Made by a program: the position numbers and the translations under genes. A stretch of 64,000 bases of DNA from a virus: UHGV virus genome UHGV-0129253, one strand, 5' to 3'. The notes under the pieces are model-generated. The model saw only the letters and a program-made list of their open reading frames with translations. It ran no database searches and was not told the DNA's origin. How positions within the stretch are numbered: the first letter of the stretch is position 1; each line of letters begins with the position of its first letter. Of this stretch, positions 19,521-62,731 are shown one piece after another.

Positions 19521-19540
19521 ATAAGTAAGTGATTACTTAG
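19521..19540. promoter_or_regulatory. Late-type motif ATAAGTAAGTGATTACTTAG in divergent promoter region
   Basis: First member of the (G)ATA(A/G)GTAAGTA...TACTTA family. Confidence 0.4.
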
Positions 19541-19557
19541 TGGATTGTAGCAATAAA

Positions 19558-20238
19558 ATGGATGTAAAAATCACGATTTTGCAGGTTGATGTTGCCAACC
19601 TTCGCCCGAATACCTGGAACACCAATTCGGTTGGTGCGCAGAATTTTGAAAAACTGAAAGGTTCTATCGAAAAATTGGGCTTTTTTAAGCCAATTTTGGC
19701 TCGTGAACTTGAAGATGGATTTTTTGAAATCCTCGGCGGTGAACATCGCTGGCGTGCTGCTATTGAGCAAGGAATTTCAACGGTTCCGGTGCTTTCTGTG
19801 GGCAAAATTAGCGATGTCGTAGCTAAACAGATGTCACTGGTGGACAACGAGCGATACGGTGAAGACGACCAAATCGCATTGCAACGCTTCATTGAAGAAA
19901 TTCAGTCAGAACTTGACTATCAACTGTCTGAAATCGCCCCGTATGACGACGAAATCTCGATGGTTTTAGCAAAAGAGGCGGCAATCGACCTTGAAGCACT
20001 GGAGGCATTGTCTCGTGGTAGTGATGAGCCTGTCGATACCGACAAACGAGAGAAAACCGAACGTGTGGGTGCGGAACATCAGACCATGCGCTTCAAAGTA
20101 ACTTTCGATGCGTCAGATCGTGTTGCAGAAACCATAAAAAACATCATCAAAGAGCAGGCTATTAACACCGGTAATGAAATGGAGAACGCTGGTGAGGCTC
20201 TGGTGTGGCTGGTCGACTACTACAAGGAGCGTATGTAA
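19558..20238 (+). CDS. ParB/Srx-fold (ParB N-terminal domain) protein 1
   Basis: GxxRxxA motif (EILGGEHRWRAA); start ATG 19558 (track gives GTG 19540). Confidence 0.6.
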   Translation: MDVKITILQVDVANLRPNTWNTNSVGAQNFEKLKGSIEKLGFFKPILARELEDGFFEILGGEHRWRAAIEQGISTVPVLSVGKISDVVAKQMSLVDNERYGEDDQIALQRFIEEIQSELDYQLSEIAPYDDEISMVLAKEAAIDLEALEALSRGSDEPVDTDKREKTERVGAEHQTMRFKVTFDASDRVAETIKNIIKEQAINTGNEMENAGEALVWLVDYYKERM

Positions 20239-20906
20239 TGACCAAAAAGTTTGAAATCGTATATCGCGACCCGGCAGATCTTATTCCCTATGAGATGAAT
20301 GCCAAAAAGCATGATGAACAGCAGATCCGAGATCTGGCCGCAGCCATTAAAAAGCGCGGATTTGACCAGCCAATTACGGTCGATAAGAACGACGTAATTA
20401 TTACTGGCCACGGCCGCCGTGAGGCTGCAATTTTTGCTGGACTTGAGCGCGTACCGGTTATTGTTCGTGATGATCTGAGTGATGACGAGGTACGTGCAAA
20501 GCGTCTTGAAGATAACCGACTTGCCAGCATTGATTACGATGCAATTAAGCTACAGAAAGAGCTTGAGTCGCTTGTTCTGGACGATATCGAGGTTTTCGGC
20601 TTTGAAGAGCGTGAGTTGAATGTTCTCGTTGGCAGTATGACAGAAGAAATGGACACCGACTCGCTAGTTATCGATCTTGGCGAAGAAACTAAACGACAGA
20701 AGGATGAACACACCGAGATCAGTCGTGAAGTTGCAGCGGAAGAAGTACGTGTTGTCGACGTATTGGGCTTTAAAACGCTCCCTGCTGGCTCTGCCATTGT
20801 TGTTGGTGATTTGCTTGCCCATATGGAAGAAATGACGGGAGAAAGCGGGGTAGACGCATTTGTGGCATATGCGGAGAAGATCTCTTCCGGGGAGATGGCT
20901 GCATGA
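20238..20906 (+). CDS. ParB/Srx-fold (ParB N-terminal domain) protein 2
   Basis: ITGHGRREAA motif; start overlaps upstream stop. Confidence 0.6.
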   Translation: MTKKFEIVYRDPADLIPYEMNAKKHDEQQIRDLAAAIKKRGFDQPITVDKNDVIITGHGRREAAIFAGLERVPVIVRDDLSDDEVRAKRLEDNRLASIDYDAIKLQKELESLVLDDIEVFGFEERELNVLVGSMTEEMDTDSLVIDLGEETKRQKDEHTEISREVAAEEVRVVDVLGFKTLPAGSAIVVGDLLAHMEEMTGESGVDAFVAYAEKISSGEMAA

Positions 20907-21568
20907 GCAAATACATCATCAACGTATCGTTTCAGACACGCGTAAATAAAACCACGCGCACGTTGGAAATCGCTGAGTCGTTCGGGCTTGGCCTGGACGA
21001 AAAAGAGTGGACGCTTTACGACAATCTGGAGCTGGAAGTGAAGCAGGGCGATGTGGTGTACATCACCGGCCAATCCGGTTCCGGCAAATCCGTTGTGCTG
21101 CGCGAGTTGCAACGACAGATGAAGGATGAAGGGCTGTCTGTAGCCTCCATCGATGATTTTACCTTCGATAATGAGGTTAACGTCATCGATCAGTTGGGCA
21201 AAACGACCAGTGATGCGCTTGGGTTGTTATCTATGGCTGGTCTGAACGATGCATATCTGTTTGTTCGCAAGCCTTCTGAAATGTCAGACGGCCAGAAATA
21301 TCGTCTCAAGATTGCCAAACTGATTGAGTCAGGCGCTAAAGTGTGGGCTGCTGACGAGTTCGGCGCTGTTCTCGACCGTGTAACCGCTCAGGTTGTGGCG
21401 TCTAACCTCCAGCGTGCCGCTCGAAAGGTTGGTGCGACGGTAATGGTGGCGACGACTCACGAAGACCTGAAGAACGCGCTGCGCCCTGATATGCAGATCA
21501 CCAAGCACTACAAAGAACGCGTGAAGGTGGAATATCACAATGGTAGTCATGATGAGGTCCATTCATGA
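20903..21568 (+). CDS. ABC-type ATPase (stand-alone nucleotide-binding domain)
   Basis: Walker A GQSGSGKS, signature-like SDGQKYRL, Walker B VWAADEF, H-loop ATTHED; ATGA overlap. Confidence 0.65.
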   Translation: MSKYIINVSFQTRVNKTTRTLEIAESFGLGLDEKEWTLYDNLELEVKQGDVVYITGQSGSGKSVVLRELQRQMKDEGLSVASIDDFTFDNEVNVIDQLGKTTSDALGLLSMAGLNDAYLFVRKPSEMSDGQKYRLKIAKLIESGAKVWAADEFGAVLDRVTAQVVASNLQRAARKVGATVMVATTHEDLKNALRPDMQITKHYKERVKVEYHNGSHDEVHS

Positions 21569-22455
21569 CGGACATCATCATTAAACGCTACCGCCCTGAA
21601 GAGTTTCCGCGTCATCTGGACTTTCTGGAGCGAATGACTGTTACAAAGGGAACTGTAGAGGACTGGCACGCTCTTAAGTCGCTTCACTACAAAACAGACG
21701 GCAAACCTTTCGCGCCAACTTACTATCGCTGCGAACTTGATGACCGTCTGGTGGGCGTCGTGGTTATGGCTTACCCGAAACTACTGTTGGCACCTCGCCA
21801 CCGCATGTTTCCTAAGTTGAAACCAACCACTAATACCACCGTGGCTAACCAGTACTGGGGTCGGTACGTGAATAACAACTTTGCGGTGATCAGTCGCTCA
21901 GTTGTGGATACTCAGTATCGTGGCGTAGGCGTCTCTTATCGAATGATTAACCTGGTTAGCAGGATGCATGACCGGCCAATCATTGAGATCCAGTCCTCGA
22001 TGAGCAAATACAATCCCTTCGCCATGAAAGCAGGGTTTAAGTTCATCCGTCCGGAGCGTCCGAAGAGCTATGAGAGTGCGTTGCGCGTCTTCCAGCGTCA
22101 TTTCCGTTCCGACCCTGGCGACAACGAAGCGATCGTCAAAGAGCTGTTTGCCATGAGTGAGTCTCGCCGTCGTCGTGCGCTGCGTGATCTGGTCGCTGAC
22201 TACCACAAGAACAGTTCCCTGGCAAAAGCTGGGCGGAATCGTGGCACGACGATTCAGGACATTGCCGACAGTCTGGTGGACGAGGCCAGCATTGTGAAGC
22301 TGCTCAAGGACATTCACAACCTGAGCTTTACGTCTCCGTTGTATGGTGTGTACCGAAACCCTGACTTTGGCCGTCGACTGCCTGACACGCTGCCACTGCT
22401 GGCATTCGACAAACAACCTTTGGATAAACCGTTAGAAATTGCTTTACCGGCATAA
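21565..22455 (+). CDS. GNAT-fold acetyltransferase-like protein with uncharacterised C-terminal domain
   Basis: Motif A QYRGVGVS and motif B NPFAMKAGFKFI; ATGA overlap. Confidence 0.5.
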   Translation: MTDIIIKRYRPEEFPRHLDFLERMTVTKGTVEDWHALKSLHYKTDGKPFAPTYYRCELDDRLVGVVVMAYPKLLLAPRHRMFPKLKPTTNTTVANQYWGRYVNNNFAVISRSVVDTQYRGVGVSYRMINLVSRMHDRPIIEIQSSMSKYNPFAMKAGFKFIRPERPKSYESALRVFQRHFRSDPGDNEAIVKELFAMSESRRRRALRDLVADYHKNSSLAKAGRNRGTTIQDIADSLVDEASIVKLLKDIHNLSFTSPLYGVYRNPDFGRRLPDTLPLLAFDKQPLDKPLEIALPA

Positions 22456-22464
22456 GGATTTGCC

Positions 22465-22731
22465 ATGACGTTAACCGATAAACAAAAGGACATCATCAAA
22501 ACGCTCAATCTCGGTTATGAGCGAGGTCATCTACTTGACCTGGACGAATTGCTTGAAGTTTTGCCGTACAAGACAACCAAGCAAAGTATCCAGTTCTCAA
22601 TTCGCGCTCTGATAAAAAAGGGGCTGGTGGAGAAAGGGCATACGCGCCAACGCAGTGACAATCGCTATCACCGCCGGACTCTTGGGTTAACCACTTTAGG
22701 TCGAGCCAAAGCGAAGTTACTGGTGATGTAA
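22465..22731 (+). CDS. Small putative winged-helix DNA-binding protein (88 aa)
   Basis: AAGGA RBS; basic C-terminus. Confidence 0.45.
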   Translation: MTLTDKQKDIIKTLNLGYERGHLLDLDELLEVLPYKTTKQSIQFSIRALIKKGLVEKGHTRQRSDNRYHRRTLGLTTLGRAKAKLLVM

Positions 22732-22755
22732 TCGGTCTGGGAGCTTATTTAAAGA

Positions 22756-22810
22756 CCTGCTTCTGTATATATAAATAATAAGTAACTTATTAAATATATA
22801 CGGAAGCAGG
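22756..22810. repeat. 55-bp AT-rich long hairpin CCTGCTTCTGTATATATAAATAATAAGTAACTTATTAAATATATACGGAAGCAGG, copy 1
   Basis: Identical copy at 55785-55839. Confidence 0.6.
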
Positions 22811-22846
22811 CTTCGTAAGACATGCCAGACCTAATTAAACACCCCA

Positions 22847-22861
22847 GAAAACAAGTTGGTT
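22847..22861. promoter_or_regulatory. Early-type half-palindrome GAAAACAAGTTGGTT
   Basis: Upstream of TerS-like gene. Confidence 0.3.
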
Positions 22862-22872
22862 AGCAGATGCAG

Positions 22873-22888
22873 TAAACAAGTTGTTTTA
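22873..22888. promoter_or_regulatory. Early-type palindrome TAAACAAGTTGTTTTA
   Basis: ~40 nt upstream of ATG 22927. Confidence 0.35.
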
Positions 22889-22926
22889 GAGCGCATGGAC
22901 GCGCTCTGTGTGTTTTAGAGGGATCT

Positions 22927-23559
22927 ATGACGGTCGAAAAAGACGAGGTAAAAACTCGCCTGACACCAGCGGAGTGGGCCGAAGCTGAAGCCAAATGGAC
23001 GTCAGGCGAATATACACTCTCAAAGCTGGAGGAAGAGTACGGCATTCGTCGTGAAACACTCTCCAGACATTTCAAAAAGCGAGGATTAGAGAAAGGCGCG
23101 GACTCTGTTGGGAAGATGGTTCGTGAGTCTCTTAAATCTGACGCAGAGCTTCGCGCTAAAGCCCGTGCGGAAAAGATAGAAGAACGTCGTACACGTTATG
23201 ACGGCTGGGCGTATGCGTTGGGGCAGATGGTGATGGTCGAAGTCACTACGGCCAAACGTGAGGGTAAGCCTTTAGGGGCGATTGAGGATTCTCTCAAGAG
23301 CTTACAGAGAGCCAGTAATACCCTTGCAAAATGCTTTGAAGTTTCGTCCAAAGCATTGGGCATGGATCATGCGGAAAATGACGAGGAAGAAATTCCGAAC
23401 CTGGTATTTGGTGAGCTTACGCCTTCCCAGGTGGCGAAATTACGTCAGGAAGACGACGAGCCTGAAATCATCGATGACGAATTGCTTGAGACGTTAGAAG
23501 AAGAAGCTCTAAGCGAATTTGATGCGACAGATGATGGAAGTGAAGGGGAGGACGAATAA
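22927..23559 (+). CDS. Putative terminase small subunit (N-terminal HTH, acidic C-terminus)
   Basis: Directly upstream of and overlapping TerL. Confidence 0.5.
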   Translation: MTVEKDEVKTRLTPAEWAEAEAKWTSGEYTLSKLEEEYGIRRETLSRHFKKRGLEKGADSVGKMVRESLKSDAELRAKARAEKIEERRTRYDGWAYALGQMVMVEVTTAKREGKPLGAIEDSLKSLQRASNTLAKCFEVSSKALGMDHAENDEEEIPNLVFGELTPSQVAKLRQEDDEPEIIDDELLETLEEEALSEFDATDDGSEGEDE

Positions 23560-24815
23560 TGGCAATCCCGTCCTCGCTCAGTCTTGTGCAACTGCATTCT
23601 GGACAGATGAAAGTCTTCCAGTCTCCGCATCGATTTAAAGTTGTTTGTGCTGGTCGACGCTGGGGAAAATCCCGGTTGTCGATCTCCACTATTATTCGTG
23701 CGGCGGCAAAGGAAAAAAAGCAAAGGGTCTGGTATGTCGCTCCTACTTACCAGATGGCTCGCCAGATTTTGTGGGACGATCTACAGGAAGTTCTGCCTCG
23801 TAAGTGGGTTAGGAAAAAGAACGACACCACGATGACAATCGTGTTGAAGAACGGTTCGGAGATCGCCCTCAAAGGTGCTGATAAGCCTGACACTCTGCGC
23901 GGCGTAGCGTTGCATTTTGTAGTGCTTGATGAATTTCAGGATATGAAGGCTGACACCTGGTACAAGGTGTTACGACCTACTCTTTCATCGACACGCGGCG
24001 GTGCACTGATCATTGGTACGCCAAAAGGCTTCTCGGAATTTCACAAACTGTGGACTATAGGCCAGAACGTAGAGCTGCAAAGAAAGGGACAGTGGAAGAG
24101 CTGGCAGTTTGTAACTGCCGATTCTCCGTTTGTGCCTACGGCGGAAATTGAAGCTGCTAAGAACGATATGGACCCCAAATCGTTCGCTCAGGAGTACCTG
24201 GCCAGCTTTGAGAACATGTCCGGGCGCGTTTACTACCCGTTCGATCGTAACGTGCATGTAAAACCGCTTCAGTTCAACCCTCGGTTGCCTATATGGGTAG
24301 GGCAGGACTTCAACATTGACCCGATGTCTTCAGTAATTTTGCAACCTCAGCCAAATGGTGAGCTATGGGCAATTGATGAATTGGTGCTCTTTTCCTCTAA
24401 CACGGCAGAGGTTTGTGATGAGCTTGAGAGACGCTTCTGGCGCTGGAAATCACAGATAACGGTATTTCCAGATCCGGCAGGTGCTTATCGCCAACATGCT
24501 CGCGGGGAGTCTGACGTCGACATATTCAAAGAGAAGGGATTCTTACGTGTCGATTATTCGAAAAAGCACCCGCCAATTGCGGATCGTGTTAATGCTGTTA
24601 ACCGAATGCTGATGACCGCATCTGGAGATATCCGGCTGTATATCGATCCGAAGTGCAAGCATTTGATTGATTCACTGGAAAAAGTCATCTACAAGCCTGG
24701 AACACGAGATATGGATAAGACAGGTGGCATTGAGCATAGTGCAGACGCATTGGGCTATCCAGTACATCGTAGGTATCCAGTCAAAAACCGTGTTATTCTT
24801 GGTGGTTCTCGATAG
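23559..24815 (+). CDS. Terminase large subunit
   Basis: Walker A VCAGRRWGKS, Walker B VVLDEF, C-terminal nuclease-like region; followed by portal. Confidence 0.8.
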   Translation: MAIPSSLSLVQLHSGQMKVFQSPHRFKVVCAGRRWGKSRLSISTIIRAAAKEKKQRVWYVAPTYQMARQILWDDLQEVLPRKWVRKKNDTTMTIVLKNGSEIALKGADKPDTLRGVALHFVVLDEFQDMKADTWYKVLRPTLSSTRGGALIIGTPKGFSEFHKLWTIGQNVELQRKGQWKSWQFVTADSPFVPTAEIEAAKNDMDPKSFAQEYLASFENMSGRVYYPFDRNVHVKPLQFNPRLPIWVGQDFNIDPMSSVILQPQPNGELWAIDELVLFSSNTAEVCDELERRFWRWKSQITVFPDPAGAYRQHARGESDVDIFKEKGFLRVDYSKKHPPIADRVNAVNRMLMTASGDIRLYIDPKCKHLIDSLEKVIYKPGTRDMDKTGGIEHSADALGYPVHRRYPVKNRVILGGSR

Positions 24816-24830
24816 GTAAGTAATTATCTA
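24812..24830. promoter_or_regulatory. Late-type motif ATAGGTAAGTAATTATCTA
   Basis: 12 nt upstream of portal ATG. Confidence 0.4.
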
Positions 24831-24841
24831 AGGTTATTCAA

Positions 24842-26416
24842 ATGGAATTGAACGACAAACAAATTAAGGATCTGGTGGCGCGACGCCACCCGGAATACGA
24901 AAAGAAAAAAGAACATTGGGACTTCCTCGCCAGCACTTACGCTGGCGGGCGTGGTTGGTTTACAGACAATATCTTTCGTTACTTTAAAGAGGGAGATCAG
25001 GAGTTTAAGGAGCGAGTTGAACGTGCTTATCGCTTCAACCACACTCGTGAGGTGGTAAACCTCATCAACAAATATCTCTTTAAAGAAGACATTCATAGAA
25101 ATATCGAAGAGGCACCAGAGCAGATCCGCAATTTCTGGAAACGTGCGACTCGCCAGAATGCCTCTATTGACTCATTTATGGCCGCTATTGATTTGCAGTC
25201 GTCTATTTACGGTCGCATATGGGTTGTTGTCGATAGCACGATGAGTGGTGATGTTGAGTCAGTAGCTGACGAGAAAAAGAAAGATGCTCGCGCCTACGCC
25301 TACTGGATTTCACCTCAGCAAATGCTGGATGTGGCATGGGACGACGACGGGAATATGTTGTGGGCGTTAATTGTGGAAGTCGCTCGTGATGACGCAGATC
25401 CTTTTACTTCTACAGGTCAGGAATACCAACGTTATCGTCTGTGGACACAAAACGAGTGGTATCTGTTCCGCGAGGAAGTGAAGAAGGGCGCTGGTGGAGC
25501 AGGTCGCCGTCAGGCAAAAGTTATTTTAGAGGATAGCGGTGAGCATAATCTCGGCGTAGTTCCTGTGTTTCCTGTTGATTGTATTGGAGAAAGTGAATCA
25601 CCGTATTTCAGCCCATCGTTGATCGATGATATCGCTTATCTTGATCGTGCGGTTGCAAACTATCTGTCAAACCTTGATGCCATTATTCAGGATCAGACAT
25701 TTAGCCAGTTGGCTATACCGGTACAGTCGCTTTTACCTGGTGATGAAAACCACACTAAAGTGCTTGAAATGGGCACAAAGCGAGTCTTCACCTACGATTC
25801 TGAAGGTGGAAACCAGCCGTTTTATCTGTCACCAGACCCGAAACAAGCTCAGATGATCATCACTACGATTAAGACGGTGATTAACGAAATCTACCATTCA
25901 GTTGGTGTAGCTGGTGAGCGAACGAAGCAGGACAACGCACAGGGAATCGATAATTCATCTGGTGCCGCAAAAATGTATGACTTCCAGCGTGTAAATAGCT
26001 TGCTTGTCACAAAAGCAGAGCGTCTGGAAAGGGCTGAACGCCAAATCATGCTACTGGTTGCGAAATGGATGGGGGCAGATCTGGACGAAGACCACTCTTT
26101 AATTGCGTATCCAGAAAGTTTCGATATTCGTGGCCTTACTGATGAATTTTCTGTTGCCGAGAAACTGTCATTACTTCAGGCACCGGACTCTGTACGTCGT
26201 CACCAGATGGAAATGCTTATTGAGAAGATTTTCCCGAACATTACTGAGGCGATGAAAAAGGAATTTGATAAAGATCTCTTGAATTTTCCTCCAAAAAATG
26301 ATCTAAATACCCTTGAAAATAAGTCAGTACTTACTTATGATCGTGGTACGGCCCAAGAAAGCGGGCAAGATCAACCCCGAGGGAATGGGGACTCATCTAC
26401 TCAAGAGAACGAGTGA
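24842..26416 (+). CDS. Portal protein
   Basis: 524 aa, position between TerL and scaffold. Confidence 0.75.
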   Translation: MELNDKQIKDLVARRHPEYEKKKEHWDFLASTYAGGRGWFTDNIFRYFKEGDQEFKERVERAYRFNHTREVVNLINKYLFKEDIHRNIEEAPEQIRNFWKRATRQNASIDSFMAAIDLQSSIYGRIWVVVDSTMSGDVESVADEKKKDARAYAYWISPQQMLDVAWDDDGNMLWALIVEVARDDADPFTSTGQEYQRYRLWTQNEWYLFREEVKKGAGGAGRRQAKVILEDSGEHNLGVVPVFPVDCIGESESPYFSPSLIDDIAYLDRAVANYLSNLDAIIQDQTFSQLAIPVQSLLPGDENHTKVLEMGTKRVFTYDSEGGNQPFYLSPDPKQAQMIITTIKTVINEIYHSVGVAGERTKQDNAQGIDNSSGAAKMYDFQRVNSLLVTKAERLERAERQIMLLVAKWMGADLDEDHSLIAYPESFDIRGLTDEFSVAEKLSLLQAPDSVRRHQMEMLIEKIFPNITEAMKKEFDKDLLNFPPKNDLNTLENKSVLTYDRGTAQESGQDQPRGNGDSSTQENE

Positions 26417-26437
26417 TAAGTAACAAAAGGAATTTTT

Positions 26438-27325: not shown

Positions 27326-27350
27326 CATCTAAATCAAAGGGAATTGATAG

Positions 27351-28226: not shown

Positions 28227-28233
28227 TCAGTGA

Positions 28234-28254: not shown

Positions 28255-28260
28255 GTTAAA

Positions 28261-28286: not shown

Positions 28287-28299
28287 GTAGGAGCGAGAA

Positions 28300-54494: not shown

Positions 54495-54853
54495 TGTCCA
54501 TGAAAATGGGTGACCTAGCAAAGCGCAAAGAGCCTGATGCACCGGCCAAGAACACAACTCCTTTGCGCCAACCAGTCAGACCACAGGGACGCCCGACTCG
54601 TGGCAAAGAGAAAATTAAAAGCCGCACAATGTCACTGGAGGACGAATACTTCGAACTGCTGGAAATGATGAAGTTCATCCCTCGTTTCGAGAAGTTCACC
54701 CGTTCTGACGTGATTCGCGCAGCCATTTTCCATCTGGCAGAGAAGTCACCGCAGGAAATCGAGGACATCGTGAAATTGAATGAGGCGATCACCGCTGCCG
54801 ATGTCACGATGCGTACCGATGAAATCAAACGAGAGTTGATGAAGAAAGGTTAA
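54494..54853 (+). CDS. Putative partition partner (ParG/ParB-like, basic N-terminus)
   Basis: 119 aa, start overlapping ParA-like stop. Confidence 0.5.
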   Translation: MSMKMGDLAKRKEPDAPAKNTTPLRQPVRPQGRPTRGKEKIKSRTMSLEDEYFELLEMMKFIPRFEKFTRSDVIRAAIFHLAEKSPQEIEDIVKLNEAITAADVTMRTDEIKRELMKKG

Positions 54854-54858
54854 AAATC

Positions 54859-54889
54859 ATGCATTGGCGCGTACATTGCGCCAATGCAT
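54859..54889. terminator. Perfect palindrome ATGCATTGGCGC-gtacatt-GCGCCAATGCAT between convergent genes
   Basis: 12-bp arms; bidirectional terminator or centromere-like site. Confidence 0.45.
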
Positions 54890-54905
54890 AACTACAGTGT
54901 CAGCT

Positions 54906-55673: not shown

Positions 55674-55784
55674 TATTGCATCTCTTTGCTACTGACTAAT
55701 GCGTTCTATTTTACACATAAGTTTTTAATCAATTTAACAGGCTCAAAGTGTAGAGCTTCTGGGCGTCTAAGACGACAAGTTATG

Positions 55785-55839
55785 CCTGCTTCTGTATATA
55801 TAAATAATAAGTAACTTATTAAATATATACGGAAGCAGG
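55785..55839. repeat. 55-bp AT-rich long hairpin, copy 2 (identical to 22756-22810)
   Basis: Exact repeat read directly. Confidence 0.6.
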
Positions 55840-55922
55840 TCTTTTAAAAGACACCACCAGAACAACTCCCTTCCGTTTCCACTTCCAAAAACTGCCACCA
55901 GTCGCTATCATCCGCTCATCGT

Positions 55923-55944
55923 GATAAGTAAGTAACTACCTACC
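55923..55944. promoter_or_regulatory. Late-type motif GATAAGTAAGTAACTACCTACC
   Basis: Upstream of gene 55956. Confidence 0.35.
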
Positions 55945-55955
55945 AGGTGAGCCAC

Positions 55956-56696
55956 ATGAGCCAGATCTTTTTCGATACCATCGACAACGACCAGTACGAC
56001 TTCATGACAGAGTGGAATACCGCTGTTATGGACAAGTGGGTCGCTGAAAACATTGGTTTGTCGCGCTGTAAAGACGAGGCTGAACTCTTCGAGACGAAGT
56101 GGTTTGATTACCGCGACATGCATCCTCTCATGGCCACCTGTCTTTTTACGGAGGCATACAAACGTCAGTACTCAAATATCATGCTGACGCACGGTCGCGA
56201 ACACTTTGAAACAGCTCCGTTCACCACCGGGTTAAAACGCCTGCCTTATCAGGAGTTGTCGACTGCCAATAAAACGTCGCTATGGAAAGCGCGCCAGTTT
56301 GCGGATCGCTATTGCTGCTCATACGACTACTTTATCTCCACCGTTCTTTCCGCAGCTGCACGACGGCTGTGGGACAAGCTGCCGCGCCCACAGCATTTAT
56401 GGCAGCAAGAACTGATTGAGATATTCGAAGAGAAATTAGCCAGACGCGCAACAACCCGTCTGGATGACTCTCTGGTTAGCTTTAAGCATATGGGGGACAT
56501 GCAGTTCAACCCGATTCAGGAAAGCTATTTTGAGTGGATTCTGGAGCGTTTACGCACCATCCCTCGCAGCAAGCGCATACGCGCAATTTTCTCCGCTATC
56601 TGGCTAATGGAAATCGTTCCAGAGCGCCTTATTTCCGCCCACTTTCCAGAAGAACTGGAAGAAGCACGGCGGTTTATTGATCCCCTATCTAATTAA
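55956..56696 (+). CDS. Hypothetical protein, first gene of the replication module
   Basis: ATG 55956 (track gives GTG 55947). Confidence 0.45.
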   Translation: MSQIFFDTIDNDQYDFMTEWNTAVMDKWVAENIGLSRCKDEAELFETKWFDYRDMHPLMATCLFTEAYKRQYSNIMLTHGREHFETAPFTTGLKRLPYQELSTANKTSLWKARQFADRYCCSYDYFISTVLSAAARRLWDKLPRPQHLWQQELIEIFEEKLARRATTRLDDSLVSFKHMGDMQFNPIQESYFEWILERLRTIPRSKRIRAIFSAIWLMEIVPERLISAHFPEELEEARRFIDPLSN

Positions 56697-56705
56697 CTAA
56701 TACTA

Positions 56706-56721
56706 GAAAACAATTTGTTTA
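56706..56721. promoter_or_regulatory. Early-type palindrome GAAAACAATTTGTTTA
   Basis: 19 nt upstream of helicase ATG. Confidence 0.4.
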
Positions 56722-56739
56722 AAAAACAAAGGAAAGCAC

Positions 56740-58080
56740 ATGACCGAACTTTGCCATACAGGACGCGGGCTGTCCGAAGAGTTTGATGAAGATTTTCAGA
56801 ACAGATTGACGGCCTATTTTTGTCGTGATCACGAGTTTCTTACTCGTGCTGGAGATCTGGTTGTACCTAGCCAATTTGCCAATGCGGCCAATGCCATATT
56901 GGTTAATATGGTTTCGGGCTATTACCGTATGTACAAGAGCGCGCCCTCTTCATCTGCGATTCTGGATATGCTTAAGCGTGCGAAACGCGATAAGACTATC
57001 CGTGAGGAACTATTCGCCGATGTTGTTGCTGCGTTTAAGCGCATCCTTGCAGAAAAATTGTCTGATACCTCGTACATGGTTGACCAGGTATCAACCTTCG
57101 CAAAAAGCGTAGCGTTTGATGATGCTCTGATTAAGGCTGCTGAACTGAAAGAGAAAGGCGACTTTCAGGGGGCGATGGCAATCATGGCCAAGGTTCAGCA
57201 GATTGGATCGAACGAAGCGACCGGAATCTATGACTACTACACCTCCGCAAGTGAGCGATTGAAAGCGCGTGAATATGAGGCTTCAGAGGAGTATGTACCA
57301 AACAGTATTACAACTGGACTCCCTCTTCTCGATAGGTTGCTGTACCAAAAAGGCTGGGCAAAGCGCGAAATGGTGCTCTTCATGGGGTTCGCTAAATCCG
57401 GTAAATCGACCGCAATGGGTGAGTTTTCCATAAACGCAACGCTTGCTGGCTACAATGTTCTGTATCTCTCGCTGGAGGTTCACACCACCATTTTATCCGA
57501 CCGTTTTGATGCAAGATTGTCGGAGACAGAAATGTCCAAGCTGGTGGAACGGCGCGATGAGGTTCATCGTAAGTTGGCAGAGTTGGGAGCCACGAAGGGG
57601 ATTGGTAGTTTGTGGGTTGTTGAGCGTCCGTCAGGAAGTATGTCACCGGCAGATCTGGATCGTATGCTTAACAGCATGAAAGCCAATGGCATGGTGCCTG
57701 ACATGGTTGTTGTCGACTATGCAGATTTGATGCGTGCCAGTTATGACCTTCGTGATGATCGCGCCAACATACGTAGTATCTATACCGACTTACGTGCTCT
57801 TTATGACAAACACAACGTTGCTGGTATCACAGCATCGCAAACAAACCGTGAAGGTGGCGCGTCAGAAGTTGCCACAATGATGCACGCTGCCGACAACATC
57901 GAAAAAGTACGTATTGCTGACCTGGTAATAACGATCAACAAAACCGAAGAAGAAGAAGCGAAAGGAGAGGCTCGTCTCTACTTTGCTGGTTCACGTAACC
58001 AGCAGGGAGGGATCAGCATTCGCGTTAAACAAAACCTCGAACAAATGCGCTTCATTGAGCGAATCTTAGACGTTACCTAA
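56740..58080 (+). CDS. DnaB-family replicative helicase
   Basis: Walker A GFAKSGKST, Walker B VVVDYADLM, SQTNRE motif. Confidence 0.7.
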   Translation: MTELCHTGRGLSEEFDEDFQNRLTAYFCRDHEFLTRAGDLVVPSQFANAANAILVNMVSGYYRMYKSAPSSSAILDMLKRAKRDKTIREELFADVVAAFKRILAEKLSDTSYMVDQVSTFAKSVAFDDALIKAAELKEKGDFQGAMAIMAKVQQIGSNEATGIYDYYTSASERLKAREYEASEEYVPNSITTGLPLLDRLLYQKGWAKREMVLFMGFAKSGKSTAMGEFSINATLAGYNVLYLSLEVHTTILSDRFDARLSETEMSKLVERRDEVHRKLAELGATKGIGSLWVVERPSGSMSPADLDRMLNSMKANGMVPDMVVVDYADLMRASYDLRDDRANIRSIYTDLRALYDKHNVAGITASQTNREGGASEVATMMHAADNIEKVRIADLVITINKTEEEEAKGEARLYFAGSRNQQGGISIRVKQNLEQMRFIERILDVT

Positions 58081-58161
58081 AAAATAAGCGTGGAGAACAC
58101 CTCCACGCTTGATTCATTGGTGAAACAACTTTTCTTTTGCCAAACCACAAAAGAAAAACAC

Positions 58162-59343
58162 ATGAGCCTTTATGTTATATCAACATTTAGGTTGGTCACA
58201 ATATTGCCTGTTAAAAGTGGAATTATCGTGAGCGAGCTGAAAGAGCTAATTACCGAATTAGATTTTGAACAATGGTTGGATACTGAAGGTATCGTTTATC
58301 GACGTGGAGGCGTGAGTACTCGCGGTCGTGAAGTGAATATCAAGGAGTGTCCGGTATGTGGCAGCTCCAACTGGAAGGTATATTTCAATCTGACCAGTGG
58401 CGTCGGTAAATGCTTCGCTGGTGATCATCCCGAAGAGATTCAGTTCAATAAGCTGGTCTTCCTCAAGCACTACAGCGGCAAATCACGACGACAGTTCGAG
58501 GAATATGTGCAGAACGCCCTTCTTTCCCAGGGGTGGGCACCAAAGAAAGAAGAGATAGTGCTTGCAAGCACAGTCGAGTTAGAGGGACCACTTGCACTCC
58601 CTCGTCATTACGAACTTCCTATAGATGGCCGTCTTCCAGACTATCTGGTTGAACGAAACATATCGCCTGAAATGGCAAAGTATTTTGACCTACGATACTG
58701 CGTCGAAGGCAAGCACGCTTATGTAGATCCGTATACAGATCAGGTTAAAGGACAGATATTCGATATGCGAATACTGATACCGGTTTACGATCTGGATGGG
58801 GTAATGAAGACATTTCAGGGGCGAGACATTACCGGTACAGCAGAACGCCGCTACCTCTTTCCTATGCAGCTTCCAGCTTCAGGTAAGTTTCTCTACAACG
58901 GCCATAATGCGGTCGGCAAACAGACTGTAGTTGTCTGTGAGGGGGCGTTCGATGTTATGGGAGTTAAACGAGCTATTTTTGATGAAGAAACATTACGTGA
59001 TTACGTGGAACCGATAGGAACGTTCGGGATGCATCTATCTGGTAACACCACTCAGGATGCAGAAGATCAGTTGGGCGCGTTCCTGACGCTCAAGGCGCGT
59101 GGATTACGTAATGTGATCATGATGTGGGATAGTGAAAAGCAAGCTATACGCAACACTATGGCCGCAGCCAGGCGACTGACCAGTATTGGTCTTAATGTCA
59201 AAGTAGCATGTTTGGGCGAGGAAGGACTCGACCCAGGCGATGCAACGCCAGAACAAATTATCAAAGCCTATTATCGGGCAAAACCGTATACCAAACAGTT
59301 GGAGTTGCAAAGCAAGGTTTTGGGCATTAAGGCGCTATCGTAA
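58162..59343 (+). CDS. DNA primase (zinc ribbon plus TOPRIM-like); start uncertain (58090 to 58230)
   Basis: CPVCGSS...CFAGDH zinc-binding motif; VVVCEGAFD and MWDSE acidic motifs. Confidence 0.5.
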   Translation: MSLYVISTFRLVTILPVKSGIIVSELKELITELDFEQWLDTEGIVYRRGGVSTRGREVNIKECPVCGSSNWKVYFNLTSGVGKCFAGDHPEEIQFNKLVFLKHYSGKSRRQFEEYVQNALLSQGWAPKKEEIVLASTVELEGPLALPRHYELPIDGRLPDYLVERNISPEMAKYFDLRYCVEGKHAYVDPYTDQVKGQIFDMRILIPVYDLDGVMKTFQGRDITGTAERRYLFPMQLPASGKFLYNGHNAVGKQTVVVCEGAFDVMGVKRAIFDEETLRDYVEPIGTFGMHLSGNTTQDAEDQLGAFLTLKARGLRNVIMMWDSEKQAIRNTMAAARRLTSIGLNVKVACLGEEGLDPGDATPEQIIKAYYRAKPYTKQLELQSKVLGIKALS

Positions 59344-59355
59344 CAAGTGCCGCTA

Positions 59356-59378
59356 AAATAAGTAGATGATTACTTATC
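59356..59378. promoter_or_regulatory. Late-type palindrome ATAAGTAgatgaTTACTTAT
   Basis: Upstream of gene 59419. Confidence 0.4.
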
Positions 59379-59418
59379 TTTCTGTAAGAATACTTTCATC
59401 TGTTAGCTAGGAGTTGGT

Positions 59419-60195
59419 ATGAAAGACGAAATTCAGAAATTAGCCTGCGACATCATTGATAAAACTGGTTTAGAAATCAGCGAGAGCAATCGACTAGACA
59501 TCATTGAAAAAGCGGTAAAAACAGCAATGGATCATATCGCCACTCGTTTGGTTGAGATCCCGCTACCAGGGCTACCTTATCTGAAAGTTGAGTTACACGT
59601 ATGGGGTGAACCTTCTTGTGCACGGCGTTCTGCATTAGTTGTTTTTATTAGCAAAGAAAACCCGCTCAGTCTTAAAGTGCAGGTTGGTGCATGGATGGAT
59701 GGCAAAGTGATCTACACAAATACCGTTTTTTGTCTTTCAAACGACGAAACTATTGAAGCGGCCATTCAAGAAGCAGTTCTAGCAATGCGCAGCAGCGGTT
59801 TGATGAAGAATAACTACGAAGAGTACTTGCGTTCGATAAGTGGTGAAAAGACATTATCTCTGAAAGCAGATTTCGTTACCCCGAAAAATCTGTTGGAAGT
59901 CTTGCTTAATAAAGGGGCTAATGATGCCGTAAATGTAATCAGAGAGAGTGAGTATGCGTCTCTTTGCGACATGTGCAAAAGCCAGTTGGATCTGGTGCAT
60001 ATCGTTATTGATGCTGGGAAGGCATGTGATGGCGTAATGGCGGAATTTGCTTGGAAGGTGGTCAGGATTGCTAACGAATTACCGATGATAGAGCAAGAGG
60101 CCAAATCATACGCCACCAATCATGTCACAGAGCTTCTTGCCCCCTATCGCTTAGAAAGCAATCAGCGCAAGATGGTTAGCTGGGGAAGTTGGTAA
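59419..60195 (+). CDS. Hypothetical protein (258 aa)
   Basis: ORF with GGAG RBS. Confidence 0.5.
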   Translation: MKDEIQKLACDIIDKTGLEISESNRLDIIEKAVKTAMDHIATRLVEIPLPGLPYLKVELHVWGEPSCARRSALVVFISKENPLSLKVQVGAWMDGKVIYTNTVFCLSNDETIEAAIQEAVLAMRSSGLMKNNYEEYLRSISGEKTLSLKADFVTPKNLLEVLLNKGANDAVNVIRESEYASLCDMCKSQLDLVHIVIDAGKACDGVMAEFAWKVVRIANELPMIEQEAKSYATNHVTELLAPYRLESNQRKMVSWGSW

Positions 60196-60227
60196 TCTCT
60201 CCGCGCGTCGTTTTTTACGCAAATAAC

Positions 60228-60253
60228 GATAGGTAAGTACAAGATTATTTATG
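60228..60253. promoter_or_regulatory. Late-type motif GATAGGTAAGTACAAGATTATTTATG
   Basis: Overlaps start of gene 60251. Confidence 0.3.
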
Positions 60254-60733
60254 GCGGTAGTTGTGAAAGCTGATTTGTCAAAAATCCCTTCTATTTCAGG
60301 AAATAACGGTTATTCACTTCGTTGTGAGGAAGTAAAGATAAACGGTGAGTCGGCATATTGCAGCTATTCCGTTTGCCAGCACACCATTCTTGCCTTCAAA
60401 GAAAACCGTCTTCCTCGAACTTCTTTCCAGTCGTGCGCAACCGCTATTAAAGCAGGCAAATGCAAGGCGTTAAAAATGATGGTTGAAGAGATTCGTAAAG
60501 GAGAATCTCTGTATTTCGAAGATATGACCGCGCTCATTAAGGAGGTTGAAGAACGGAATAAACAAGCCAGAACTATAAAACGAAAACGTGACAGTGTAAC
60601 GATTAATAGCATGGTTAAGAAGAGCACCACATCACAAACAGCGATCACTGACGTGTATGCGGCGTTGCTTGAAGAAACAACAAAAGAAACACATGAGCAA
60701 ATCGATCAACATATGGAGGCAAAACAACAATGA
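60251..60733 (+). CDS. Hypothetical Cys-containing protein (160 aa)
   Basis: ORF. Confidence 0.45.
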   Translation: MAVVVKADLSKIPSISGNNGYSLRCEEVKINGESAYCSYSVCQHTILAFKENRLPRTSFQSCATAIKAGKCKALKMMVEEIRKGESLYFEDMTALIKEVEERNKQARTIKRKRDSVTINSMVKKSTTSQTAITDVYAALLEETTKETHEQIDQHMEAKQQ

Positions 60734-62052
60734 AAAAGTTGATCGCACTTAAGCATAAGCTGGACGAAATGAAAGCTATGGGAACCAATGCAAAAAAAGA
60801 GGCATTGACCAACATGGATGACTTCGAGCAAAGCATGGTTTCATTGATGCTCAACCCTTTCATCCGTTTTGGGGTAAAGAAATACAAAGTGGCAGAGCCG
60901 CTTAGTGAGTCCGTCCCAAGTGACGAAAAAGCCATTGATGTACTGAATAAGCTGGCCTCTCGCGAGCTGACGGGGAACGCAGCAATAGAAGCTGTTGAGT
61001 CTATCGTGGCGTCAATGTGCGCCGATGGGCAGGACGTGTTCCGTCGTTTCCTCTTAAAAGACCCGAAAGCAGGTGTTGGGATTAGCCTATGCAACAAGGT
61101 TTTTGAAAATCCCATTCCGAAATTCGAGGTGCAGCTGGCGTCACCGTATAAAGAAAAAGGCGACAAATACCCCTTCAAGCCAAATCCTAAAGCAAAATGG
61201 CCGATGATTGGCAGTCTTAAGCTCGATGGTTTGCGAGTAATTTGTGAGGTTATTGTTGACGAGGAAGAGGTGAACTTCCTTTCTCGTACTGGTAATCCAA
61301 TCACGTCTCTCGATCACCTAAAGCCAGCCATGCTCGAATTAGGCAAACTTTCAGGCCACAAACACATCTTCTTCGATGGTGAAGGAACAGCCGGTTCATT
61401 TAACCAGTCCGTATCTGCATTGCGCAAAAAGAACGTGCAGGCAATTGGCGCTATTTATCATGTTTTCGACTTCTTCCTACCGGAATGGCGGGCACAGGCT
61501 AAATCCAAAGAGTATGCAAAGACAGGTATGAAGCTGAAAGAGCGCCTGGCTATTCTCGTGGCGTTGTTCAAAAACGATCGCAGTGAAGACTACGCGCAAG
61601 ACATTCACCTACATCCGTTCTACATCATCCATAGCCACGAAGACTTCATCGAACGCTTCATGAAACGCCTGGACGATAACGAAGAAGGGGAGATGGGCAA
61701 AGATCCGAACTCTGTTTACGAGTTTAAACGTACCCGCAGCTGGTGGAAGTTAAAAGACGAAGATTCAGAAGATGGTGAAATTATCGATTTTGAGCCTGGC
61801 GACCCGGACTCTGGTTTTGCCAACACGCTTGGAAAAATTGTTATTCGTCTTGAAAACGGCGTCATCGTTCGTGCGAGCGGCATTAAGCATAAATATCTGG
61901 ACGAGATCTGGAACAACAAAGAGAAGTACCGTGGTCGTATTGTCGAGGTTCATTGTCACGAGAAAACGCCTGATGGCAGCTTACGCCACCCACGACTGAA
62001 ATGGCCGCGTTGCTTACGCGATACCGAAGATCGAATCGGAGATAAAGAATGA
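60730..62052 (+). CDS. ATP-dependent DNA ligase
   Basis: Adenylation motif I KLDGLR, motif III FFDGEG; 440 aa. Confidence 0.7.
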   Translation: MKKLIALKHKLDEMKAMGTNAKKEALTNMDDFEQSMVSLMLNPFIRFGVKKYKVAEPLSESVPSDEKAIDVLNKLASRELTGNAAIEAVESIVASMCADGQDVFRRFLLKDPKAGVGISLCNKVFENPIPKFEVQLASPYKEKGDKYPFKPNPKAKWPMIGSLKLDGLRVICEVIVDEEEVNFLSRTGNPITSLDHLKPAMLELGKLSGHKHIFFDGEGTAGSFNQSVSALRKKNVQAIGAIYHVFDFFLPEWRAQAKSKEYAKTGMKLKERLAILVALFKNDRSEDYAQDIHLHPFYIIHSHEDFIERFMKRLDDNEEGEMGKDPNSVYEFKRTRSWWKLKDEDSEDGEIIDFEPGDPDSGFANTLGKIVIRLENGVIVRASGIKHKYLDEIWNNKEKYRGRIVEVHCHEKTPDGSLRHPRLKWPRCLRDTEDRIGDKE

Positions 62053-62264
62053 TCGTATTAAGTAAAAGGGAGAAAGAAACGCTTCATGAAATCAGTAAGT
62101 GGCCGGAGTTCCCTGAGTACTGGAAGCCTAAAACGCGAGCTAAGTTAGAGCGTTTAGGGTTGGTTGCAAACGTTTCTGAAACGTGGTGCTCGGCCAACTA
62201 CCAGTTAACTGATAAAGGGAAAGTATTGCTACAGCAATTAGTAGAATCAGGAGTGTTAAAATGA
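62049..62264 (+). CDS. Hypothetical small protein (71 aa)
   Basis: ATGA overlap with ligase stop. Confidence 0.45.
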   Translation: MIVLSKREKETLHEISKWPEFPEYWKPKTRAKLERLGLVANVSETWCSANYQLTDKGKVLLQQLVESGVLK

Positions 62265-62413
62265 TTCCATACATCTCATTAGCTTTTATGGGTGGCTTCC
62301 TTATCGGCTTCGGCATCTGTCGTGATTTAATTAAGCAGGAACTTAAAACCAAAACACTGTGCATCGGAAAGCGTGTGTATCGGGTAGTTCATGAAACAAA
62401 GGTGAAAAAATGA
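62261..62413 (+). CDS. Small membrane protein (50 aa, one TM), translationally coupled
   Basis: ATGA overlaps at both ends; frame verified codon by codon; below track threshold. Confidence 0.3.
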   Translation: MIPYISLAFMGGFLIGFGICRDLIKQELKTKTLCIGKRVYRVVHETKVKK

Positions 62414-62700
62414 GCAATTTAACTTCTTGGGAATGGTGGTTGGCCACCTATTTCTTAGCGGCCGGAGTCGCATTCGCCTTTTACGTAGGTCAGTTAGTCG
62501 TAAAACTGTTGCTGATTAAATTTGCTAGTCATAAACGTATCGATGATGGTCTGTGGCGTCTTGGCACCCTGGTGGAAACTCGCTACGGGCAACTTAAGGA
62601 GAACGAAACCATTACTATCCAAGCGAAACGATTCACTGCCACCATCACAAGAACACCTAGTCGTAGAGTGGCCTTGATCATAAAAGTCACAACCGAATAA
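62410..62700 (+). CDS. Small membrane protein (96 aa)
   Basis: N-terminal TM WWLATYFLAAGVAFAFYVGQLVV. Confidence 0.5.
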   Translation: MSNLTSWEWWLATYFLAAGVAFAFYVGQLVVKLLLIKFASHKRIDDGLWRLGTLVETRYGQLKENETITIQAKRFTATITRTPSRRVALIIKVTTE

Positions 62701-62709
62701 AAACATGAT

Positions 62710-62731
62710 GATAAGTATTTACTTACTTATC
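62710..62731. promoter_or_regulatory. Late-type motif GATAAGTATTTACTTACTTATC, possibly driving the tRNA region
   Basis: Last member of the family; no plus-strand CDS follows before the tRNAs. Confidence 0.3.

Follow-up and report, generated by a model that had tools for sequence, protein, structure and literature searches.

A dispersed 20-base-pair palindrome of SSU5-type phage-plasmids as a candidate operator of the lysogeny repressor

What is the function of a palindrome that recurs next to packaging, tail, lysis and replication genes of a single element, and which protein binds it? The question is raised by a stretch of 64,000 nucleotides (nt) from the virus genome UHGV-0129253, referred to as the window, in which a first-pass annotation had noted eleven copies of such a motif between positions 19521 and 62731. 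These were taken to mark a separate regulon, possibly a set of late promoters recognized by a phage activator, and an 88-amino-acid (aa) winged-helix protein was put forward as one candidate for that activator. By megablast, the window belongs to an SSU5-group phage-plasmid. Its structural region is 99.3% identical to that of Escherichia phage Cyrano (pLF82, E. coli LF82), and identity amounts to about 82% with Salmonella phage SSU5 and about 79% with Klebsiella elements such as pJN2-26. The annotation of Cyrano was transferred directly onto the window genes; the whole element has a size of roughly 108 kilobases (kb). On balance, the palindrome probably serves the CI-like lysogeny repressor of SSU5-type phage-plasmids as a dispersed operator.

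The motif is real and functional: it constitutes a genuine, non-random and conserved family of cis-elements that behaves like the signal of a regulon. Scanning of whole relatives made it possible to recognize the full unit, a 20-base-pair (bp) palindrome with the half-sites ATARGTAAGT and ACTTAYCTAT, the axis of which falls between motif positions 9 and 10. The window contains 12 full copies and one core-only copy and, in an alignment of these, the left part is strongly conserved and the right part, TACTTA, more weakly. GTAAGTA is found 18 times in the window against 4.8 times expected, and ATARGTAAGTA, with at most one mismatch, 12 times against 0.86, a count that none of 100 shuffled sequences reaches. 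With the 20-mer ATARGTAAGTACTTACYTAT and at most five mismatches, there are 14 matches in the window, nearly all in intergenic DNA (two of the 14 belong to a different, longer inverted repeat), whereas shuffles average 1.14 and never exceed 3. The same search yields 31, 36 and 32 matches in Cyrano, SSU5 and pJN2-26, respectively, versus 0 to 4 in shuffles. In the intergenic DNA of Cyrano (14.25 kb, 40% GC), 11, 17 and 22 matches are obtained at up to three, four and five mismatches, where shuffling within segments gives 0, 0.07 and 0.42. Enrichment over the AT-rich background, the check that had been named beforehand, is thus confirmed, and the shuffle tests, including those on intergenic Cyrano DNA only, rule out chance or base composition as the source of the motif. 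After collapsing, 26 of the 27 Cyrano sites are intergenic, in a genome that is 87% coding.

Complete elements from E. coli, Salmonella and Klebsiella carry 25 to 30 copies at orthologous positions. The E. coli-type palindrome is GGTAAGTACTTACC, and a perfect 20-mer, ATAGGTAAGTACTTACCTAT, is present in pJN2-26, for example at 14621, 40580 and 44026. An exact-pattern scan of 185,579 species genomes gave 13 single matches in unrelated metagenome-assembled genomes, an uninformative result close to what chance would give. Within the E. coli lineage, conservation tends to be higher in the upstream half (10 versus 26 mismatches in the window), an orientation bias that is not significant (p = 0.17-0.79). 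As to the copies first noted, all eleven are present, they lie just upstream of the named genes in the manner of a regulon signal, and the genes were correctly assigned: the ParB_N operon, the terL/portal junction, the 3' end of the portal gene, the junctions of the major capsid protein (MCP) and Ig-like genes, of tail completion and major tail, of M and L and of J and tail fibre, the region upstream of the holin gene, the helicase operon, and both the 160-aa/ligase operon and the end of the ligase operon. The motif is also distinct, as had been proposed, from an "early family" of the AAACAA-N-TTGTTT type. The two perfect palindromes that had been quoted do exist, at positions 1-3 nt away from those given, namely TAAGTAATTACTTA at 45239-45252 and GTAAGTATATACTTAC at 31814-31829. 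Two further copies, at 59358-59377 and, core-only, at 11956-11971, had been missed and emerged from a position weight matrix scan.

A regulon of late genes is not what the distribution reveals. Outside the window, in Cyrano, SSU5 and pJN2-26, the palindrome also precedes the genes for a gp32-like SSB, nrdA, thyX, dam, sbcD and the repressor, and further sites lie at a membrane-protein operon after recA, at the gene after RNase H and at the gene after a DUF4942 methylase; the helicase operon is preceded by a copy as well. Genes of replication, recombination, nucleotide metabolism, DNA methylation and repression are therefore associated with the same site as the morphogenesis and lysis genes. 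The counterpart of window positions 1 to 19.5 kb is nearly free of the motif and uses the AAACAA-N-TTGTTT-type palindrome family instead.

The position of the palindrome with respect to promoters points in the same direction. Promoters of the sigma-70 type were predicted and scored around all 65 sites; the predicted registers are conserved within groups of orthologous sites and differ between groups, at least six registers being found. In the first of these, the palindrome makes up the spacer. The copy ATAAGTCAGTACTTACTTAT (26319-26338, plus strand, one mismatch), inside the 3' end of the portal gene, corresponds exactly to the 17-bp spacer of a near-consensus sigma-70 promoter, TTGAAA (26313-26318) and TATGAT (26336-26341). 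This predicted promoter scores 13.9 bits and is kept in Cyrano, SSU5 and pJN2-26, the palindrome being identical at 20 of 20 positions in both relatives compared; the site downstream of recA (TTGAAA-17-TATCAT) and that of SSB are built likewise. At nrdA (TTGATA-17-TAACAT) and at the L gene, the -35 element overlaps the left edge. The L copy, ATAAGTAAGTACTAATTTAC (38315-38334, plus strand), lies between tail genes M and L, with the predicted promoter TGGATA-17-TATCAT at 38312-38340. The -10 element coincides with the palindrome centre at the major tail gene, where the copy ATTGGTAAGTATATACTTAC (31810-31829, plus strand), following the tail-completion gene, is combined with TTGAAT (31797), an 18-bp spacer and TATACT (31821-31826). 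It falls in the left half at CYRAN_60 (TTTACA-17-TAGTAT), and the palindrome is placed at +1 at dam and at the repressor promoter. In a further register the right arm itself forms the -35 element (TTTACY). An example is the copy ATAAGTATTTACTTACTTAT (62711-62730; no strand assigned, ATAAGTAAGTAAATACTTAT on the minus strand), which lies between the ligase operon, whose last gene ends 10 nt before it, and the tRNA cluster, with a predicted plus-strand promoter TTTACT-17-TAAGAT; it is identical to SSU5 at 20 of 20 positions.

Such a variable overlap with the core promoter is operator behaviour, whereas activator boxes, as those of P1 Lpa, keep a fixed position. A TAnnnT hexamer at offset +7 could be mistaken for a directional -10 element, but in Cyrano, SSU5 and pJN2-26 it occurs 14, 14 and 14 times on the downstream side versus 9, 13 and 15 times upstream; as frequent on one side as on the other, it belongs to an extended palindrome. 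The several registers, without fixed activator geometry and without a directional -10 at a fixed offset, speak against late promoters, and a repressor operator fits the evidence better. The idea that the motif itself is a classical sigma-70 promoter was rejected as well, for its conserved hexamers are unlike TTGACA and TATAAT and the -10-like flank is symmetric. Relative to shuffles, sigma-70-like matches are depleted in the window, with 12 versus 20.7 expected at 19001-39000 and 9 versus 24.1 at 44001-64000. Three of the 12 matches in the former region, at 26313, 31797 and 38312, coincide with palindromes.

The state of these genes in a lysogen is documented by the RNA sequencing (RNA-seq) of the Cyrano lysogen in the LF82 paper (PMC9928086, S1 table), from which all of the following values are taken. 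In LB culture, all palindrome-linked genes are at the prophage background, with a median of 9.8 normalised counts, and this includes genes with near-consensus promoters (CYRAN_4, 10.9; MCP, 7.4). No rise above background is seen for the gene of the 88-aa protein (7.8), the two ParB_N genes (5.0 and 9.5) or CYRAN_37 (6.4), and the putative repressor gene CYRAN_45 stands at 96, approximately 10 times background. Since near-consensus promoters are silent in the lysogen, something that is expressed there must silence them, and the repressor is the only candidate regulator expressed in this state. In macrophages at 6 h, expression steps up (in log2 units) across the palindrome between CYRAN_11 and CYRAN_12 (5.98 to 8.49; the 31810 site), from CYRAN_55 to CYRAN_56 (4.06 to 7.61), from CYRAN_59 to CYRAN_60 (4.84 to 8.77) and from CYRAN_3 over CYRAN_4 to CYRAN_5 (4.75 to 5.97 to 7.35). 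These four sites are four of the five top-scoring conserved predicted promoters; the fifth, nrdA (12.5 bits), gives no step up. The macrophage steps are suggestive only.

CYRAN_45 encodes a protein of 128 aa with a putative CI-like helix-turn-helix (HTH), and its gene adjoins the integrase gene. It matches the PHROG 8 "transcriptional regulator" family (E = 1.3e-11) and, weakly, the Pfam families HTH_19, HTH_37 and HTH_3 (E = 8e-4 to 0.06); a sequence search of the PDB gave no match for it. By synteny, the gene is located about 2.6 kb past the right end of the window, in which tblastn detects no copy. Directly downstream of the repressor-gene promoter, TTTACA-17-TAATAT, there is a core copy of the palindrome, GGTAAGTGCTTACC, and because it follows immediately, it covers the predicted transcription start (+1) of the repressor gene. 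More half-sites are present near the divergent gene CYRAN_46. The arrangement is kept in pJN2-26, where the repressor is 56% identical and the recognition helix, GYKN.N.LSLIK.G, is conserved. The repressor family is found in 995 PLSDB plasmids, of which 154 are from Acinetobacter.

Three further syntenic elements display their own versions of this system. A. baumannii CP155459 has the dispersed palindrome ATCAGTCAGTACTGACTGAT in about 30 copies, three of them in the immunity region. Acinetobacter pDD520 has about 25 copies of TATTAGTAAGCGCTTACTAATA (also given as TAGTAAGCGCTTACTA), with related half-sites in the interval that separates the repressor gene from the first lytic gene. The divergent K. 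pneumoniae OW968253 has about 20 copies of ATAAGTAAnnnnTTACTTAT, including two in tandem upstream of the repressor gene. The half-sites of all lineages are clearly homologous (AT-n-R-GT-M-AG-Y) and differ at few positions, and the OW968253 palindrome is devoid of the conserved GTAC centre. It is in this OW968253 lineage that the recognition helix of the repressor differs, GYKNANNLSLIK versus GFENANNISLIK. The sites of the repressor region all lie outside the window (Cyrano 42603, pJN2-26 90499, CP155459 23979 and 24368, OW968253 about 55965-56030).

SSU5 could appear to be an exception, as it is without integrase, repressor and CYRAN_46, and yet retains about 30 good palindromes. Enterobacter plasmids that are 98-99% identical to the SSU5 flank carry a segment absent from SSU5, with the integrase gene, the repressor gene and CYRAN_46, and the deletion in SSU5 is therefore recent. 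For this reason its palindromes were dismissed as evidence against the repressor. SSU5 looks like a recent, virulent derivative of a phage-plasmid that arose by deletion of the repressor, which fits its behaviour as a lytic phage. In the phage collection, no virulent relatives were found that have the gene of the 88-aa protein and not that of the repressor.

We infer both the identity of the binder and the reality of the predicted promoters, and on this basis the following mechanism can be proposed. A dimer of the repressor would bind the 20-bp palindrome in about 27 copies, spread over the intergenic regions of the approximately 108-kb element. Where the site overlaps the -35, the spacer, the -10 or +1, binding would block initiation; in very short gaps, such as that between terL and portal, a roadblock to read-through seems more likely, a role suggested by analogy with the stoperators of phage L5. 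Together, the sites would silence the operons for replication, nucleotide metabolism, morphogenesis and lysis in the plasmid-prophage state, and the copy at the repressor's own promoter would provide negative autoregulation. Loss or inactivation of the repressor would free all sites simultaneously.

Several observations weigh against this proposal. The Pfam HTH matches of the repressor remain under the curated cut-offs, and its gene lies outside the window, so that its presence in this very element is derived from relatives that are 97-100% identical. A single operator in common for replication and structural genes does not explain temporal control. The RNA-seq steps are mixed, and at some palindromes expression steps down, for example from CYRAN_5 to CYRAN_6 and from CYRAN_16 to CYRAN_17, where GC hairpins come after the palindrome. 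In CP155459, 16 of 29 sites carry a -10-like hexamer directly downstream, on the gene side, versus two on the other side, and most sites are without a good -35, a geometry like that of promoters activated in the manner of P1 Lpa. For the CP155459 lineage, a fixed promoter architecture is conceivable.

These last points lead to the strongest rival, in which the palindrome is an activator box: a dimeric phage activator would switch on promoters lacking a -35, in the way that the 11 late promoters of P1 depend on Lpa. The activator could be the 88-aa winged-helix protein or the small CYRAN_46 protein, whose gene neighbours that of the repressor, and the copy at the repressor promoter would then serve to shut off the repressor during lytic growth. 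P1 late promoters consist of a 9-bp inverted repeat at -22 plus a -10 element (PMC10695390), and the P1 box, AAGTnACTT, resembles the palindrome centre AAGTACTT. At the would-be -35, most sites are A-rich and not TTGACA-like. Moreover, CYRAN_46 is expressed at up to 10.8 log2 in macrophages, concurrently with the rise of some palindrome-linked genes (PMC9928086). Nevertheless, we consider this reading unlikely. The enterobacterial sets have no fixed directional geometry, given that TAnnnT at +7 is as frequent distally as on the gene side, and several sites overlap +1 or the -10, or fill the spacers of near-consensus promoters that should need no activation. The regulon mixes replication with structural genes, and the terL/portal junction cannot accommodate a transcription start and a Shine-Dalgarno sequence. 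A homolog of Lpa (PF25716) is lacking too: with P1 Lpa as the query, tblastn on the complete genomes of Cyrano, SSU5 and pJN2-26 gives a best E-value of 0.29, and neither the weakly matching protein nor the other candidates match PF25716, against which Lpa itself scores 3e-57. Homologs of P1 C1 and Coi were not found either.

The 88-aa protein deserves a closer look, its gene (22465-22731, plus strand) being located just upstream of terS, directly before the packaging genes as lpa is in P1. The protein indeed models as a winged helix, as had been supposed: an AlphaFold2 model has a mean predicted local distance difference test (pLDDT) value of 72.5, with about 86 in the core, and the fold is closest to that of the LexA DNA-binding domain (top Foldseek match, probability 0.99) and of other winged-HTH repressors. 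A PDB sequence search was uninformative. As binder of the palindrome it is not favoured, as it is unexpressed in the lysogen, where the targets are silent, and its recognition helix, TTKQS(I/M)QFS(I/L)RALIKKG, is common to Cyrano, pJN2-26 and OW968253, in spite of the altered palindrome centre of the last. The comparison of helices, constant in the 88-aa protein and varied along with the palindrome in the repressor, modestly favours the repressor as the probable binder. A further point on the other side is that the 88-aa protein also evolves fast between lineages (36-45% identity), so that covariation does not cleanly exclude it.

The surroundings of this gene have features of their own. A 58-bp inverted repeat, CCTGCTTCTGTATATATAAATAATAAGTAACTTATTAAATATATACGGAAGCAGG, is present in identical copies at window positions 22755-22812, between the 88-aa gene and terS, and 55784-55841, upstream of the helicase operon, and also at Cyrano 31166, 78091 and 108349. 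Its arms resemble halves of a LexA box (CTGTATAT...ATATACAG in Cyrano), and its centre, AAGTAACTT, matches the P1 Lpa box AAGTnACTT. The repeat may be the real control element of late genes or replication, and possibly a target of the LexA-fold 88-aa protein. The terS leader (22850-22926) has two palindromes of the AAACAAGTTGTTT type and a terminator-like hairpin with a T-run (22887-22908) just before the terS Shine-Dalgarno sequence. In view of this hairpin, entry into the late operon may need antitermination or attenuation control.

Less probable still is a toggle between two proteins, in which the CI-like repressor would hold the about 27 sites in the plasmid state, so that they work as operators and as roadblocks, and a second small protein would drive the promoters without a -35 from these sites after induction. 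The latter could be the 88-aa LexA-fold winged helix or a protein of the CYRAN_46 type. Under such a toggle, immunity groups would be set by point changes in the half-site (GTAAGT, GTCAGT, GTAAGC) and by accompanying changes in the recognition helix of the repressor. The groups would extend across the phage-plasmids of the SSU5, pHCM2 and pMT1 kinds in Enterobacteriaceae and Acinetobacter.

It could also be imagined that the palindrome acts in RNA, as a small AU-rich hairpin in polycistronic transcripts that is a processing site or a translational operator, bound for example by the conserved FljA-like protein (PF03614, Hfq-like) encoded at 16615-17217. Copies do lie 2-60 nt before start codons, several within long operons, the better conservation of the upstream half in the E. 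coli lineage would be in keeping with it, and an RNA-binding repressor of the FljA family is kept in the enterobacterial elements. The pattern of substitutions is against it: at all 10 position pairs, Watson-Crick counts equal those expected from independence (for pair 3/16, GC 16, AC 16, AT 15 and GT 12). The fold is weak (-4.4 kcal/mol, z = -0.8), the copy at 55924 forms no hairpin at all, and Rfam gives no match. The copies are found in both orientations, without significant bias, and in divergent promoter regions, and the Acinetobacter elements keep the palindrome system without a FljA homolog detectable by tblastn. Lacking covariation, a stable fold and an Rfam match, the RNA hairpin was rejected, and we regard it as very improbable.

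Binding by proteins of the ParB type is equally improbable. The plasmid RK2 has 12 dispersed palindromic OB sites for KorB, and N15 has dispersed centromeres. For sites of either kind, KorB-like silencers or scattered centromeres as those of N15 SopB, the conceivable binders are the two ParB_N proteins, whose genes (19558-20906) come directly behind a copy of the palindrome. This was rejected because both proteins match the N-terminal domain of ParB only, with no detectable HTH, their operon does not rise above background in the lysogen while the targets are repressed, the ParA partition operon is expressed and has no palindrome, and the sites track promoters and start codons, unlike a centromere.

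The remaining copies can be followed along the gene order of the 19.5-62.7 kb region, which starts with the operon of ParB_N, ABC and acetyltransferase genes, with the gene of the 88-aa protein last, and continues with terS, terL, portal, MCP, the tail genes, tail fibre and lysis genes; its 3' portion comprises a toxin-antitoxin pair and ParA, the helicase-primase operon and then the ligase operon. The first copy, ATAAGTAAGTGATTACTTAG (19521-19540, plus strand), is found 17 nt before the ATG (19558) of the first ParB_N gene. A TATAAT hexamer (19517-19522) abuts and overlaps its left edge, and orthologs are present at Cyrano 105107, SSU5 99798 and pJN2-26 34775/34779. In the operon that follows (19558-22455), the genes of two ParB_N-only proteins are joined by one for an ABC-type ATPase and one for an ATPase with a fused acetyltransferase-like domain. 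This operon, which is silent in the lysogen, is kept as far as the Acinetobacter relatives, with the addition of a thioredoxin and a Gp49 protein. The copy ATAGGTAAGTAATTATCTAA (24812-24831, plus strand) occupies the 26-nt gap between terL and portal, contains the terL stop codon and has the portal ATG 10 nt downstream. Here there is too little space for a classical promoter, and the copy is a candidate for a roadblock-type site. Its orthologs are at SSU5 2031 and pJN2-26 40580 (no mismatches), and in both Acinetobacter plasmids the terL/portal junction bears the lineage-specific palindrome.

Past the MCP stop codon by 8 nt, the copy GTAGATAAGTAATTATCTAT (28235-28254, plus strand) is followed by a terminator-like hairpin with a T-run (28261-28281) and then by the Ig-like gene. 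Between the J-like and tail-fibre genes, the copy ATAGGTAAGTAATTACTTAA (45234-45253, plus strand) is likewise followed by a GC hairpin at about 45255-45275. Several palindromes have a GC-rich hairpin of this kind that begins 1-10 nt further on, at 28261-28281, 31835-31849, 38344-38366 (next to the L copy) and 45255-45275. A T-run accompanies two such hairpins, that after MCP and, in Cyrano, that before nrdA; in SSU5 and pJN2-26, the hairpin preceding the major tail gene differs in sequence and is unchanged in structure. Possible roles are those of terminators, 5' stabilisers or processing sites. The copy ATGTGTAAGTACTTACCTAC (51175-51194, no strand assigned), which matches about equally well on either strand, overlaps the end of a 279-aa open reading frame (ORF) and lies about 50-62 nt before the holin gene.

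In the replication region, the copy ATAAGTAAGTAACTACCTAC (55924-55943, plus strand) is situated 12 nt before the ATG (55956) of the gene that opens the helicase/primase operon and has orthologs in all three relatives. The copy ATAAGTAGATGATTACTTAT (59358-59377, no strand assigned), between the primase gene and a 258-aa ORF and upstream of the latter, has perfect outer arms and a diverged centre, with orthologs at Cyrano 34730 and SSU5 38178. The copy ATAGGTAAGTACAAGATTAT (60229-60248, plus strand) has a degenerate right half and ends 2 nt before ATG 60251, the start of the 160-aa ORF of the ligase operon. At this place (60229-60253) and at Cyrano 59399-59422, the palindrome stops 1-2 nt before the annotated ATG and there is no Shine-Dalgarno sequence; at Cyrano 59399, the predicted promoter TTTACA-17-TAGTAT would initiate at about the ATG. 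This points to leaderless mRNAs. The core-only copy GTAAGTACATACTTAC (11956-11971, unit 11952-11971, no strand assigned) is located between a terminator and a 131-aa ORF (12015), in the otherwise motif-free "early" region, and is conserved at SSU5 93165 and pJN2-26 28031.

The early family itself is found at window positions 1071 to 13700 (for example at 1071, 7993, 10636, 12445 and 13151). A promoter-like TTGTTTTCTACCTTTTCTTATTTGTGAAAAT is followed by the palindrome AAGAAAACAA-N-TTGTTT, approximately 20-50 nt before start codons. Cyrano has nine exact copies and OW968253 has 15; Cyrano sites are at 82, 29259, 32080, 58595, 80549, 81278, 93114 and 96286, and one copy precedes cobT, downstream of CYRAN_46. 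In the same part of the window, two arrays (9551-9647 and 13548-13641), about 4 kb apart, each consist of three tandem repeats of about 30 nt (..ACCAACCTCTT....CAGGCTACCG..) and look like iterons or a centromere. The FljA-family protein (200 aa; 16615-17217, minus strand) matches Pfam PF03614, "repressor of phase-1 flagellin", with E = 2.5e-84, and a further match, Hfq-like, is weak. Enterobacterial SSU5-like elements have kept this protein and the Acinetobacter relatives are without it; host flagellin or phage mRNAs may be under its post-transcriptional control. The Acinetobacter SSU5-like phage-plasmids, for their part, encode a sigma factor of the sigma-70 family (pDD520 78810-79475; CP155459 19397-20080) in an early operon, with a cobS-like gene on one side and dnaE on the other; tblastn finds no homolog of it in Cyrano, SSU5 or pJN2-26. 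Finally, the hypothetical gene CYRAN_43 (Cyrano 40268-40822; 184 aa), which lies near the integrase gene and outside the window, shows expression in the lysogen about 720-fold over the prophage background (PMC9928086, S1 table).

How does the proposed repressor system compare with known ones? As with the C1 operators of P1, there is a plasmid-prophage with one repressor and many operators over a genome of about 100 kb, which overlap the sigma-70 promoters of replication and other lytic functions and are also present at the repressor's own gene. In contrast, the P1 sites are asymmetric 17-mers, C1 is an unrelated protein, and the structural genes of P1 are separately under Lpa, whereas here one site precedes structural and lysis genes too. 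A second parallel is offered by the stoperators of the gp71 repressor of mycobacteriophage L5, reportedly described by Brown et al. in 1997. L5 has about 30 repressor sites in short intergenic gaps throughout its early and late operons, for which a block of leaky read-through and of initiation has been proposed. This distribution is similar to that of the palindrome; unlike the latter, stoperators are asymmetric 13-mers in one orientation, and the proteins are unrelated and the hosts belong to different phyla. The likeness to P1 C1 and to L5 is one of mode of working, not of family membership.

Other systems share fewer traits. The P1 Lpa late promoters have about 11 copies of the AAGTnACTT inverted repeat beside a -10, upstream of morphogenesis and lysis operons, and a regulator gene just upstream of the packaging genes; their fixed -22 geometry, restriction to late genes and requirement for Lpa are all three absent here. 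With CI and Cro of lambda (XRE-type HTH), the system has in common a small repressor, here a putative HTH protein, encoded beside the integrase and divergently from a small first lytic gene, palindromic operators with half-site cores about 9-10 bp apart and a repressor promoter that would be autoregulated. The lambda operators are confined to the immunity region, whereas about 95% of the copies here are elsewhere. The OB sites of KorB in RK2, about a dozen palindromes across the plasmid that serve global silencing at promoters, are similarly dispersed; KorB is a ParB-family protein with an HTH, unlike the ParB_N proteins here, which have no detectable one and are unexpressed in the lysogen.

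SSU5-type phage-plasmids are common. The hosts of the 995 plasmids with the repressor family are Klebsiella, E. coli, Enterobacter, Salmonella, Yersinia pestis and Acinetobacter, and resistance genes are present on some of these plasmids. In the literature, including a full-text sequence search, we found no description of the motif or of the control of the switch between plasmid and virus in these elements. The operator and its candidate repressor provide a testable model for the maintenance of lysogeny, for induction and for superinfection immunity between related elements, and the sites mark likely promoters and operon boundaries in a poorly annotated genome. Furthermore, the lineage-specific variants of the operator suggest that immunity groups could be typed from sequence alone.

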